DNA from: an uncultured Bacilli bacterium
GTDB lineage: Bacteria; Bacillota_I; Bacilli_A; RF39; UBA660
NCBI GenBank assembly: GCA_949425575.1
Contig: CASPVX010000002.1
Location: forward strand, 10,309 to 74,308
Direction: 5' to 3'
DNA length: 64,000 bases
The position numbers and the translations under genes were made by a program. The notes beneath the pieces are model-generated. The model saw only the letters and a program-made list of their open reading frames with translations. It was not told where the DNA came from and made no database searches. Shown piece after piece: positions 54,302 to 61,530 of the stretch (the stretch's first letter is position 1; every line of letters starts with the position of its first letter).

Positions 54302-56121
<1,820 letters not shown>

Positions 56122-57543: not shown

Positions 57544-58515
57544 ATGAAAAAAAATCCAACTAAAACAATTACGCTTAAAGTAAGTGATAATACTAAAGAA
57601 AAAATGGTTGAATATTTTGAAGATAAAAAAAGAATGAAAACACCGGCTTATGCTGTTTTTCAAGCAGATGAGGCTGATACAGTTGTTACTTTATATGAAT
57701 CTGGGAAAGTTGTTTTCCAAGGAATAAGCGCTGACATAGACGCTAGTATGTGGTCACAAATGGAAAAACATTTAAATCCTGATAAGAAATTAGAATTAAA
57801 GAAATCTGATAATGAGAAGTTAAAAAAAGAAAAAACAGTTAATCCTGCTTTATATAATTGTGATGCTATTGGTTCTGATGAAGTTGGAACCGGAGACTAT
57901 TTTGGACCACTTGTAGTAAGTGCTGCCTTTGTTAAAAAAGAAGACATTCCTTTTTTAGAAAACTTAGGTGTTAAAGATTCTAAAAAAATGACTGATGAAA
58001 AAATAATACAAATCGTTCCAGAAATAATTAAAAAAATTCCATATTATAGTATTTGTTTATCTAATAAAGAGTACAATCAAGAGTATGGCGAAAATATGAA
58101 TATGAATAAGATTAAAGCTGTATTACATAATAAAGTTTTACTTAATTTAGCCTCTACTCATAAATATGAAAAAATAATTGTTGATGAATTTGCTAAACCT
58201 TATGTTTATTATAATTATTTAAAAGATGTTTCAAATGTTCAAAGAGGAATTACCTTTACAACTAAAGGTGAAGATGCTTCTTTAGCTGTAGCTTGTGCTT
58301 CATTAATCAGTAGATTTATATTTATCAAAAAATTTAATGAGCTTTCTAAAGAACTAGGTATTATTTTACCTAAAGGTGCTGGAACTAAAGTAGATGAAAT
58401 TGGCGCTAGTATTGTAAAACAATATGGTTTTGACAAATTAAATGAAATAGCTAAAGTGAGTTTTAAAAACACTGAAAAAATAAAAGATTTATTAAATGAA
58501 AAACCTACTAATTAG
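57544..58515 (+). CDS. rnhC: Ribonuclease HIII
   Basis: N-terminal TBP-like domain and the catalytic IGSDEVGTGDYFGPLVV and ..DSKK.. motifs. Confidence 0.88.
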   Translation: MKKNPTKTITLKVSDNTKEKMVEYFEDKKRMKTPAYAVFQADEADTVVTLYESGKVVFQGISADIDASMWSQMEKHLNPDKKLELKKSDNEKLKKEKTVNPALYNCDAIGSDEVGTGDYFGPLVVSAAFVKKEDIPFLENLGVKDSKKMTDEKIIQIVPEIIKKIPYYSICLSNKEYNQEYGENMNMNKIKAVLHNKVLLNLASTHKYEKIIVDEFAKPYVYYNYLKDVSNVQRGITFTTKGEDASLAVACASLISRFIFIKKFNELSKELGIILPKGAGTKVDEIGASIVKQYGFDKLNEIAKVSFKNTEKIKDLLNEKPTN

Positions 58516-58528
58516 TAGGTTTTTTTGT
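58494..58528. terminator. Bidirectional palindromic terminator shared by two convergent, overlapping genes
   Basis: Perfect palindrome AAACCTACTAATTAGTAGGTTT (58501-58522) flanked by an A-run and a T-run. Confidence 0.7.
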
Positions 58529-59563
58529 GAACTTAACTATAGTATTATCTTCTGGATAATGATGATCATAGAAAACAGGTTCTTCTCCCATTCTATCCAT
58601 TGACATAGCTTCTTCTATAATTTTTTTTATGTATGAGCTATTATTTTTAAGAGCTAAAAGAATCATTTTTTCATCAAAGTCAGTTACATCACCAAATTCT
58701 TCACTCACAATTCTTTTAATTCTATGTTTCGCTATTTTTAAAAGTATTTTTTTCAGTAATGTAGGTTCCTCCACATAGTATAGATAATCATCTATAGGTT
58801 TATAACCAGATGCTTTTTTCAAACTATCTATACTAACTCCAAATAAATTTATAGAATCTTCTAAATTGCAATTGTTAATAATAGCCTTAAGTATAGCTAC
58901 ATCTATGCTATTTTCTCCATAACAATTTGCTGGTTCATCGCCTACTCTCATAAAATACTCGTTGAAGTCAATATATATTGATTTCATAACCTTATCTTTT
59001 GTATTTTTAGTCATTGTTATCACTTCACTTTCTACTTTATTTTTTTTATCATACTCTTTTGCATCTTCTATCCTCATGGCATTCCAAATAACATTATGAA
59101 CTGTTTCACTTTGGAAATCTAATGCTAAAAATAGCATATCTGCATTAAAGGGGCTTCTTTGAGAAAATTCATTTGCTATTAATTCTTCTACTCTTCTTTT
59201 TATACTTTCCTTAACTGGTGAATCTGAAGAAATTTCACCATCTATTTTATGAAAGAAAGATGCCATTTTTAAACTGTCTATTTCTATTCCAAATACTTCA
59301 ATAACGCTGCTTAAATCAGAATTATTTAAAATAGCAAGTAATATTGCTAAATCTATATTATCTTGTTTTTTTACTATTTGATTGCTACATAATAATTTTT
59401 CATAATACAATGGTGCATCATTAATTACTGCTCTTGCATCTTCAGAATAGCGTTTTTCTCTTTTAGTTCTTTTATATACTTCAATTCCCTTTACAGCCGC
59501 AATAATGGACAAAAAGGAAACTGCTACAATAACAGTAGCTTCATACAAAAGTAATAAACCCAT
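58508..59563 (-). CDS. Hypothetical N-terminally anchored protein made of two ~140-aa tandem repeats
   Basis: The block IDLAILLAILNNSDLSSVIEVFGIEIDSLKMAS aligns with IDVAILKAIINNCNLEDSINLFGVSIDSLKKAS, and downstream blocks are also collinear. Confidence 0.6.
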   Translation of the reverse strand: MGLLLLYEATVIVAVSFLSIIAAVKGIEVYKRTKREKRYSEDARAVINDAPLYYEKLLCSNQIVKKQDNIDLAILLAILNNSDLSSVIEVFGIEIDSLKMASFFHKIDGEISSDSPVKESIKRRVEELIANEFSQRSPFNADMLFLALDFQSETVHNVIWNAMRIEDAKEYDKKNKVESEVITMTKNTKDKVMKSIYIDFNEYFMRVGDEPANCYGENSIDVAILKAIINNCNLEDSINLFGVSIDSLKKASGYKPIDDYLYYVEEPTLLKKILLKIAKHRIKRIVSEEFGDVTDFDEKMILLALKNNSSYIKKIIEEAMSMDRMGEEPVFYDHHYPEDNTIVKFTKKPTN

Positions 59564-59631
59564 GCCTATCAGCTCCTTAATAATTAGGTCTTATAATATA
59601 TTATTTTAACGTTTTAGTCAAATTTAGGCAC

Positions 59632-59806
59632 AAAAAAAGTCCAAAAGAGAAACCGTAACGATCAAAAACCTGATCTCCCAGGTGGGCATCACATTACAAA
59701 TTTTAGGATTCTCTATTAATAATAGAGCATTCAACACCATTTGTAAATTAGACTCCCAATCGTTATACTTAGTAGGTTTTTCAGAATTGGTATTCTTCTT
59801 TTAGAC
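59632..59806 (-). ncRNA. Candidate stand-alone rod-shaped sRNA (~175 nt), possibly 6S-like
   Basis: An extended -10 promoter (TGGTATAAT, 59813-59821) places the TSS near 59806. The first 18 nt (GTCTAAAAGAAGAATACC) pair with GGTTTCTCTTTTGGAC at the 3' end, which is directly followed by T7. Internal helices are AAAAACCT/AGGTTTTT, TTACAAAT/ATTTGTAA and an apical CTCTATTA/TAATAGAG. There is no ORF. Confidence 0.5.
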
Positions 59807-59863
59807 AATTATATTATACCACAAATTCACTAAAAATATAACTGCTTTACACTAGTTTTTAAC

Positions 59864-60667
59864 CTAATTTTTATACTCATCTAAAAAGCTATGATTTTCT
59901 CTATCTTTTTGGTAAGAAATTATCGTATTAAGGTTTACATTAGATGTTGAGGTAAAAATTGCTTTAGCTGCATCTTTATTATATTTTTCTAATTCTTTTA
60001 TTAGTTTTTTCATTTCACTTCTTTTTCCGCTTTGTTTTTTTGTCACAGAGCAAGCACAATCTATAAATTCTAAGTTATTATAATTTTTAAAATTAATTAT
60101 ATCGGCTTCTCTTACTAAATAAAGTGGTCTTATTAATTCAATATTTTCAAAATTATCACTTTTTAATTTAGGCATCATACTTGAATATGAACCATTATAT
60201 ATTAAATTAAGAAGTATTGTTTCGACAACGTCATCAAAATGATGTCCAAGGGCTATTTTATTACAACCAAGTTTACTAGCATAATCATATAAATAACCTC
60301 TTCTCATTTTGGCACATAAATAGCAAGGACTATCAGCAGTATCTGCTATTTTAAATACTGGTGTTTTAAATATTTTTGCATCAATATTTAATAGTTTTAA
60401 ATTTTCTTTTATTTTATTTAACGTTTCTTTAGTATAACCTGGATCCATAATTATAAATTCTAAATCTATTTTATATACGCCGTGTCTTTGTAATTCTTGC
60501 ATACATTTAGCTAGCAAAAATGAATCTTTACCTCCACTCATGCATACAGCTATTTTATCGTCTGCATCTATTAATTTATAATCTTTTATAGCTTTTATAA
60601 ACTTACTCCATATTTTTTTGCGGTACGTTTTAATTATACTTTTTTCTACTATACGATATTTTTCCAT
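59864..60667 (-). CDS. ttcA: TtcA-family PP-loop ATPase (tRNA 2-thiocytidine-type sulfurtransferase)
   Basis: CMSGGKDS PP-loop, SPCYLCAKMRRG, and a second Cys cluster in DCACS. Confidence 0.7.
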   Translation of the reverse strand: MEKYRIVEKSIIKTYRKKIWSKFIKAIKDYKLIDADDKIAVCMSGGKDSFLLAKCMQELQRHGVYKIDLEFIIMDPGYTKETLNKIKENLKLLNIDAKIFKTPVFKIADTADSPCYLCAKMRRGYLYDYASKLGCNKIALGHHFDDVVETILLNLIYNGSYSSMMPKLKSDNFENIELIRPLYLVREADIINFKNYNNLEFIDCACSVTKKQSGKRSEMKKLIKELEKYNKDAAKAIFTSTSNVNLNTIISYQKDRENHSFLDEYKN

Positions 60668-60850: not shown

Positions 60851-60876
60851 AATTCATGCAGAAAAGAGGCGTTTTT

Positions 60877-61530
60877 ATGACTTTAGTAAAGAAAGAAGAT
60901 GTAAAACAAAAAGACCCTTCAGCATATCATCATGGATATCATACTGGATTTATAGATGCCGCAAAAGTATTGGTGGTAGTATTTGAAAATGGTGAGTTTT
61001 ATTATTATAGTGCGGTTGATTTTGGATTGACAAAAGTTCCTGTACAAATAGAAACCATTTCTTTTATTTGTCCTGAAATTTATAAAGTTAGAGATCCTTA
61101 TTTTATTGTTTGTGAAAATTATTATTTACTTGAAACTTTGAATATAGATCATGGTAATGGAGTTTCATTAGGTACGCCTATAGCTTGCCTGTCTCATGAT
61201 GCCTCTAAATATTATGATCCTAGGTGTAAAAACATATATAATGCTAACAATCAAGAAAATGAAAAATTTCAATTGCTTATCCATGTTAACCCTACTATAA
61301 ATAAACTTTATGAATTTATATGTTCATTTGGAATAACTTATTATATTTCTCCTGATGTTGAACAAGCAAGCGTGTTTGAATGCCGTAAATTTATGGAAAA
61401 AAATGCTAAAGCGCTAAATAATTTACATGAATCACTCAAAAGAACCTCTGAGGCAATTGAAAATGAAAATCATTTTACAGGCCCCCAATTAACACTTAAA
61501 CGTGGTCTAGGAATTACAACAATGTATTGA
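60877..61530 (+). CDS. Hypothetical protein
   Basis: The ATG at 60877 follows an AAGAGG RBS, downstream of the predicted promoter. No recognisable motif. The gene is followed by the hairpin AAGTCATT-tcat-AATGGCTT plus a T-run. Confidence 0.5.
   Translation: MTLVKKEDVKQKDPSAYHHGYHTGFIDAAKVLVVVFENGEFYYYSAVDFGLTKVPVQIETISFICPEIYKVRDPYFIVCENYYLLETLNIDHGNGVSLGTPIACLSHDASKYYDPRCKNIYNANNQENEKFQLLIHVNPTINKLYEFICSFGITYYISPDVEQASVFECRKFMEKNAKALNNLHESLKRTSEAIENENHFTGPQLTLKRGLGITTMY

Follow-up and report, generated by a model that had tools for sequence, protein, structure and literature searches.

The window, by which we mean the whole 64-kb stretch of DNA analysed, carries on its minus strand a small RNA gene that lies between a gene for a PP-loop ATPase and an open reading frame (ORF) of 351 aa. 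Farther upstream are the C-terminal part of hisS, aspS, and a 224-aa ORF on the other strand. Downstream of the 351-aa ORF are genes for RNase HIII, CvpA, thioredoxin, and CTP synthase. An earlier reading of the region from its letters alone (the sequence-only reading) had placed hisS and aspS upstream of the RNA and on the same strand, and Pfam matches confirm this arrangement. T-box leaders (RF00230) precede hisS-aspS in the related loci L005-L007, L009-L011, L013, L014, L019, L023, L026-L028, and L037, and L027 has a second T-box leader downstream of aspS. The window itself stops within hisS, and the corresponding upstream leader region lies outside it. The sole tRNA in the window is tRNA-Thr(GGT) at 54302-54375 on the minus strand, which adjoins the CTP synthase gene.

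The ATPase (267 aa; 59864-60667, minus strand) is encoded directly upstream of the RNA and resembles TtcA, the tRNA 2-thiocytidine-32 synthetase. Its score of 204 bits is under the equivalog cut-off of 272 bits. The 224-aa ORF (60856-61530, plus strand), which is located between aspS and the ttcA-like gene, is missing both from a contig of the same species (L162) and from the closest genome (L001); thus, it is a strain-variable insertion. The 351-aa ORF (58508-59563, minus strand) lies directly downstream of the RNA, and its predicted product has a hydrophobic N-terminus. L001 lacks this ORF, and L162 has one with a 211-aa product in its place. Neither the 224-aa nor the 351-aa ORF has a match in Pfam, NCBIfam, PADLOC, or PHROGs.

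Family assignment and orthologues

Bacteria use the small 6S RNA as a mimic of an open promoter that holds RNA polymerase in check. The sequence-only reading proposed a 6S-like RNA at this locus and suggested Infernal searches with the Rfam 6S model and all other Rfam models. We compared the whole window with all 4227 Rfam families at their gathering thresholds, which produced two matches only: one tRNA and one 6S RNA. The RF00013 (6S/SsrS) match covers 59634-59810 on the minus strand with 63.7 bits, compared with a gathering score of 46.4 (E = 2.8e-10), and is full-length (model positions 1-187 of 187). In a permissive rescan of 59450-59950, the best family other than RF00013 had E = 1.4, and no riboswitch or leader family scored. 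Thus, RF00013 is the only significant family in this region, and the 6S-like reading is borne out.

From the predicted start at G59806 to the end of the U7 tail at 59632, the RNA is 175 nt long. Both ends are predictions, and this length is within the range of ~150-200 nt that is typical of 6S RNAs. RNAfold assigns 59806-59632 a minimum free energy (MFE) of -44.4 kcal/mol (z = -3.66), a stability that was not reached by any of 200 dinucleotide-shuffled sequences.

Table 1. Positions of the 6S RNA gene and its elements in the window
Feature	Positions	Strand	Basis or remark
6S RNA transcript (ssrS/bsrA-type), ~175 nt	59632-59806	-	RF00013 match, MFE z = -3.66, covariation
Weak -35-like TTATAT, 17 nt upstream of -10 box	59836-59841	-	sequence reading
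Extended -10 promoter TGGTATAAT	59813-59821	-	read directly; kept in orthologues
Closing stem, 5' arm GUCUAAAAGAAGAAUACC	59789-59806	-	pairs with 59654-59639 in MFE fold
Helix P2, 5' arm AAAACC, closing-stem side of bubble	59775-59780	-	Rfam alignment
Central bubble, 5' strand UACUAAGUAUAACGAUU	59758-59774	-	unpaired in Rfam consensus
Alternative helix, 5' arm UAACGAUU, distal 5' bubble; resembles 'central bubble collapse helix'	59758-59765	-	MFE fold
GGG closing the bubble apically; partner CCC 59684-59686	59755-59757	-	pair counts in orthologues
Apical-arm helices, 5' strands (GUCUAA, UUACAAAU)	59739-59753	-	Rfam alignment
Terminal hairpin CUCUA(UU)-loop-(AA)UAGAG	59711-59727	-	Rfam alignment, MFE fold
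Apical-arm helices, 3' strands (AUUUGUAA, UGUGAU)	59688-59701	-	Rfam alignment
CCC of CCCACCU box, partner of GGG	59684-59686	-	invariant columns in structure-blind alignment, pair counts
Central bubble, 3' strand, hairpin ACCUGG-GAGA-UCAGGU	59668-59683	-	MFE fold, terminator scan
Helix P2, 3' arm GGUUUU	59665-59670	-	Rfam alignment
Alternative helix, 3' arm GAUCGUUA, just 3' of P2	59656-59663	-	MFE fold, per-sequence duplexes
Closing stem, 3' arm GGUUUCUCUUUUGGAC	59639-59654	-	sequence reading, MFE fold, covariation
U7 tail directly after closing stem; presumed intrinsic termination point	59632-59638	-	sequence reading

Orthologues were collected via the flanking aspS and ttcA-like genes. A scan of species-representative genomes anchored on AspS found no close relative; the best match was 72% identical and came from an uncultured Bacilli MAG, followed by matches from 'Tenericutes' and Erysipelotrichaceae MAGs. 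Identical proteins were found on metagenome contigs alone. A further 80 loci came from a metagenome scan for which the TtcA-like gene served as anchor. Rfam places 6S RNA downstream of aspS in four loci (L001, L005, L007, and L019), and a covariance model that combined five Rfam-confirmed sequences with the Rfam structure located 6S RNA in 11 genome loci and in 19 of the 80 metagenome loci, where it lies a few hundred bases downstream of the TtcA-like gene.

In the alignment fitted to this covariance model, 86.1% of cells are paired, versus 37-46% when the partners are slid, and both partners change in 31 of 42 pairs; none of 500 shuffles reaches these values. Because such an alignment leans towards the structure, the sequences were realigned with MAFFT alone. 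This structure-blind alignment (A4) holds 22 distinct orthologues with their flanks, and the Rfam structure was projected onto it. We used the Rfam consensus in place of an RNAalifold structure of the first five sequences, which was set aside; unlike the curated model, it pairs the 5' strand of the bubble (columns 35-41 with 62-68). Even with the structure-blind alignment, 74.0% of cells are paired versus 41-51% when slid, and 33 of the 44 curated pairs change on both sides, which was matched by none of 500 shuffles. This covariation indicates that the 6S structure is under selection. Compensatory changes, whose absence the sequence-only reading regarded as grounds for abandoning its proposal, are present among the 22 orthologues.

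Covariation extends over the entire rod. Both sides change in 12 of 13 pairs of the closing stem (helix 1) and in all eight pairs of helix 4 in the apical arm. The three pairs counted in the terminal hairpin all covary and are 100% paired, and pairs of P2 switch between A-U and U-A from one clade to another. Each of the three GGG:CCC pairs is G-C in 20 to 22 of the 22 orthologues, and the CCCACCU box is invariant or nearly so. Within the species, three contigs have an identical 271-bp region, and a fourth differs from them by a single substitution, C to U at 59743, so that a C-G pair of helix 4 becomes U-G.

These data bear on two alternative explanations. Given the low GC content (33%), A-U helices are easily found, and the resemblance to 6S RNA could have arisen by chance in AT-rich intergenic DNA. 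However, the E value applies to the whole window, no shuffled sequence folds as well, and conservation and covariation span lineages whose flanking proteins are only 51-81% identical. The probability of a chance resemblance is thus practically negligible. Alternatively, the region might encode a small protein. The sequence-only reading called the region free of ORFs, and indeed no ORF of at least 40 aa was found on the RNA strand in the gap. However, a 38-aa frame (59624-59740, minus strand) lies inside the RNA, and a 40-aa ORF is present in antisense orientation (59682-59804, plus strand). Only one orthologue retains the ATG of the 38-aa frame, stop codons break the frame in nearly all of 21, and the substitutions follow compensatory base-pairing rather than codons. 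A coding function is accordingly very hard to credit.

The gene order is also informative. Both the window and L001 have hisS, aspS, a 267-aa (ttcA-like) gene, and 6S RNA in this order, and 11 related loci have 6S RNA on the downstream side of aspS. Suzuma et al. 2002, as cited in PMC10578484, reported B. subtilis 6S-1 from the intergenic region between aspS and yrvM. On the strength of that citation, the statement in the sequence-only reading that bsrA lies downstream of hisS-aspS is correct. The RNA studied here shares this location with B. subtilis 6S-1, as well as the Rfam family and the rod architecture. Unlike in B. subtilis, the ttcA-like gene and the strain-variable ORF separate aspS from the RNA.

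The RNA is identified as a member of the 6S family by both sequence and structure, and the designation "candidate 6S-like" can be upgraded to "6S RNA." We are confident that 59632-59806 on the minus strand is the 6S RNA gene (ssrS) of an uncultured low-GC Bacilli bacterium and the positional orthologue of B. subtilis bsrA/6S-1. Judged from synteny and from predicted features of the bubble, the subtype is most probably 6S-1. The family is already known, and the gene is an ordinary, standard member of it.

Central bubble and alternative pairings

When the Rfam consensus is projected on the window sequence, it has 44 pairs, of which 40 are canonical. The projected structure proceeds from the closing stem through an internal loop to P2, the central bubble, the GGG:CCC pairs, two apical-arm helices, and the terminal hairpin. 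The MFE fold likewise has an apical hairpin and a long closing stem of 16 bp with two bulges. This is the stem that the sequence-only reading had drawn between the first 18 nt and 59639-59654. The inner helices that it had drawn (AAAACC/GGUUUU, UUACAAAU/AUUUGUAA, and CUCUA/UAGAG) all consist of Rfam 6S consensus pairs as aligned here.

Other details of that drawing need correction. An apical hairpin of 8 bp is impossible, as it would leave a loop of 1 nt; the MFE fold has 7 bp and a 3-nt loop, and the Rfam alignment has 5 bp and a 7-nt loop. The bubble had been estimated at about 27 and 22 nt, but the open bubble has 17 nt (59774-59758) over 13 nt (59683-59671). It is smaller because the GGG of the first GGGAG motif (59757-59755) pairs with the CCC at 59686-59684. 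Both GGGAG motifs assigned to the bubble do exist; however, the first is partly paired in this way, and the second (59679-59675) forms a hairpin loop and is unconserved.

This hairpin, ACCUGG-GAGA-UCAGGU, occupies the 3' strand of the bubble and in the window also takes in the first three nucleotides of the 3' arm of P2. The MFE fold also contains an alternative helix, in which UAACGAUU of the distal 5' bubble pairs with GAUCGUUA. For both elements, per-sequence analyses replaced the column-wise test because of indels. An equivalent hairpin is found next to CCCACCU in all 22 orthologues, with compensatory changes that yield variants such as CCUG/CAGG, CCUA/UAGG, CCUCU/AGAGG, and CUCGC/GCGAG. 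Equivalents of the alternative helix, evaluated as per-sequence duplexes, have a mean z of -1.87, with z < -1 in 18 of 22. In most orthologues they occupy the same place with different sequences (CGAUAA/UUAUCG, GAGAU/AUCUC, UGAUAU/AUAUCA). The column-wise count for this helix, in which indels of the MAFFT alignment interfere, is 58.6% paired versus 55.8% at a slide of -1.

The MFE fold thus corresponds to a 'collapsed' conformer in which P2 is open, the 3'-bubble hairpin is formed, and UAACGAUU is paired with GAUCGUUA. The Rfam open-bubble structure has a calculated energy of -27.5 kcal/mol, compared with -44.4 kcal/mol for the MFE fold. Because of this difference of 17 kcal/mol, the free RNA is predicted to prefer the collapsed conformer over the open bubble.

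Promoter, start site, and 3' end

The extended -10 promoter TGGTATAAT from which the sequence-only reading proposed a start near 59806 is present on the minus strand, and its geometry is preserved in all 22 orthologues. The first transcribed nucleotide is predicted to be G59806, 7 nt past the -10 box. The box occupies a fixed alignment column, matches TATAAT at five or more of six positions in 18 of 22 orthologues, and is preceded by TGn in 18 of 22. The spacer between the box and the first nucleotide of the closing stem, a purine, is exactly 6 nt in every orthologue. This constant distance to the purine that opens the stem supports G59806 as the primary 5' end.

The element TTATAT is located where the sequence-only reading placed a weak -35 box. 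It matches TTGACA at only two of six positions and shows no conservation in the structure-blind alignment of the 22 orthologues. It is probably dispensable, given the TG extension. A scan for the sigma-70 consensus did not list the promoter at 59821-59813, because its -35 element is weak, and instead listed internal and downstream look-alikes. The scan is uninformative at this promoter.

A further motif, TGTCAAGA(C/G)T, is conserved ~25 nt upstream of the -10 box in Erysipelotrichaceae-type orthologues (L005, L007, L019, L008, L013, L023, L006, L028, and L024; A4 columns 14-23). The window has GTGTAAAGCAG at the matching position (59850-59840). The motif could be a regulator site; TGTCAA is the reverse complement of TTGACA.

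At the other end of the RNA, seven U residues directly follow the 3' arm of the closing stem, as had been read. U-rich tails (at least five of eight) after the stem were counted in 13 of 22 orthologues; all close relatives of the window are among these 13. The terminator scan did not flag the closing stem with its U7 tail, and its 'terminator' call at 59683-59668 corresponds to the 3'-bubble hairpin. As an AU-rich stem that encloses the whole RNA, the closing stem would be an atypical intrinsic terminator. The same scan found no other hairpin and U-run between the 6S RNA and the next gene.

With its position ahead of the 351-aa gene, in the same orientation, and with a stem and U-run at its end, the RNA could in principle be a cis-acting leader of that gene, either a riboswitch or an attenuator. 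However, a separate promoter-like sequence, TTGACT-17-TATTAT (59621-59593), was found by the promoter scan between the U7 tail and the gene, and the Rfam rescan gave no score to any known leader family. Moreover, L001 has a convergent RNase HIII-sized ORF at this position, L162 encodes the 211-aa product, and the RNA is kept in both. Because the downstream gene differs among the window, L162, and L001 and the RNA does not disappear with it, a role as leader is exceedingly improbable. Chance resemblance, small ORFs, and a cis-acting leader are all rejected on the evidence from orthologues, ORFs, and downstream genes.

By analogy with established 6S RNAs, we infer that the gene yields a stand-alone transcript of ~175 nt. 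In B. subtilis, a 5' leader of 11 nt is removed from 6S-1 by RNase J1, and the 3' end is trimmed (PMC10578484). In contrast, the closing stem here begins at the predicted first nucleotide and is flanked immediately by U7 at its 3' end, and hence hardly any processing, if any, would be expected. In this lineage, the gene may even be a minimal promoter-to-terminator unit, in which the closing stem serves as the terminator hairpin and the primary transcript is already mature, with no processing of the RNase J1 or RNase E/G type. The free RNA would rest in the collapsed conformer, and RNA polymerase would have to capture or induce the open form. This extended proposal is speculative, and we consider it rather unlikely to be right in all its parts.

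pRNA template and comparison with known 6S RNAs

A 6S RNA imitates an open promoter and is bound by the housekeeping holoenzyme, and transcription of a product RNA (pRNA) from the 5' bubble strand leads to release of the enzyme (PMC8414754, PMC3299989). In B. subtilis 6S-1, pRNA synthesis starts at C40, near the 5' edge of the bubble (PMC8876501). The corresponding edge in our alignment, where P2 meets the bubble, has a near-invariant CCUAC. By analogy with C40, and with a GG hallmark at pRNA positions 4/5 (PMC8414754), the template start is probably C59772, the last C of CCUAC. This start gives the predicted pRNA 5'-GUAGGUUUUUCAG. The predicted 5'-GUAGGUUUUUC is G-initiated and has GG at positions 4/5. 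A conserved adenine beside the pRNA start has also been reported as a hallmark (PMC8414754). The nucleotide at this position (-1 of the template) is A in most orthologues and U in the window.

This deviating nucleotide is one reason to ask whether the RNA is instead a 6S-2-type homologue or a degenerate copy, which would bind RNA polymerase and be a poor pRNA template, or would have lost its function. The pRNA start is itself placed by analogy, and the data cover one 64-kb window, such that a second 6S gene could lie elsewhere. However, the position adjacent to aspS matches that of bsrA/6S-1, and the predicted start C would direct initiation with GTP, a 6S-1 property that B. subtilis polymerase requires for efficient pRNA synthesis (PMC3753640). 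In addition, purifying selection acts on every helix, with compensatory changes, and the gene is identical on several contigs of the same species. We therefore regard a 6S-2-type or degenerate RNA as improbable and favour assignment to the 6S-1 type.

As a 6S-1-type RNA, the ~175-nt transcript would fold into an open-promoter mimic and, within the sigma-A holoenzyme of RNA polymerase, fill the active-site cleft, such that housekeeping transcription would be damped when nutrients are scarce. When NTP concentrations rise, the polymerase would copy the 5' bubble strand, probably from C59772, to make the pRNA. Extension of the pRNA would unzip P2 (AAAACC/GGUUUU), after which the freed 3' strand of P2 could join the hairpin of the 3' bubble (ACCUGG/UCAGGU), and pairing could arise between the distal 5' bubble and GAUCGUUA. 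The bubble would then collapse and the polymerase would be released, as described for B. subtilis 6S-1. Both RNA polymerase binding and pRNA synthesis by this RNA are presumed from such analogies.

In B. subtilis 6S-1, the 3' bubble has a small hairpin from the outset, and the unwinding of P2 is followed by formation of a 'central bubble collapse helix' (PMC8876501). The RNA in the window is alike in that its 3'-bubble hairpin appears to be pre-formed and a potential collapse helix involves the distal 5' bubble. The predicted template C near the 5' edge of the bubble, and hence a G-initiated pRNA, is a further likeness. The two RNAs differ in that B. subtilis 6S-1 is ~190 nt long and much less AU-rich than the ~175-nt RNA described here. 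In the predicted pRNA, GG at positions 4/5 is followed by U5, whereas the B. subtilis 6S-1 pRNA has GG at 5/6 followed by an A-rich sequence.

The 6S RNA gene of lactic acid bacteria is comparable: it is single, of the 6S-1 type, and has a TATAAT promoter of its own, its 3' end is predicted to be a rho-independent terminator, and its pRNA template is conserved and shows the GG hallmark (PMC8414754). However, their 6S locus lies between rarA and uspA, unlike that in the window, and a cre site often overlaps the -35 element (PMC8414754), whereas none is evident here.

The 6S RNA of Escherichia coli (ssrS) shares the family, the mimicry of an open promoter, and pRNA-driven release. The E. coli RNA matures from a longer ssrS-ygfA transcript, and its pRNA starts with ATP, whereas GTP is predicted for the RNA in the window. 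The 3' bubble strand of the E. coli RNA is unstructured, and a 9-bp release hairpin forms only after pRNA synthesis (PMC8876501), unlike the situation predicted here. Another RNA polymerase-binding RNA with a rod shape, Ms1 of Actinobacteria, is related to 6S RNA in structure (PMC9130861). However, Ms1 binds the core enzyme and not the sigma-A holoenzyme, and it is confined to Actinobacteria; at the locus described here, only RF00013 scores.

The gene can be labelled ssrS/6S RNA, as any Rfam-based annotation pipeline would do, and beyond annotation this matters little. As a compact natural variant that is predicted to be leaderless and to have a built-in terminator, the RNA could suit in vitro work. 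The 22 diverse orthologues lend support to the curated 6S structure and to the hairpin in the 3' bubble; their support may extend to the bubble-collapse helix. The species, a gut or bioreactor bacterium, has been seen only in metagenomes; it belongs to an uncultured, AT-rich lineage of Bacilli that has retained, near aspS, a canonical RNA of the 6S-1 type as the presumed regulator of RNA polymerase.
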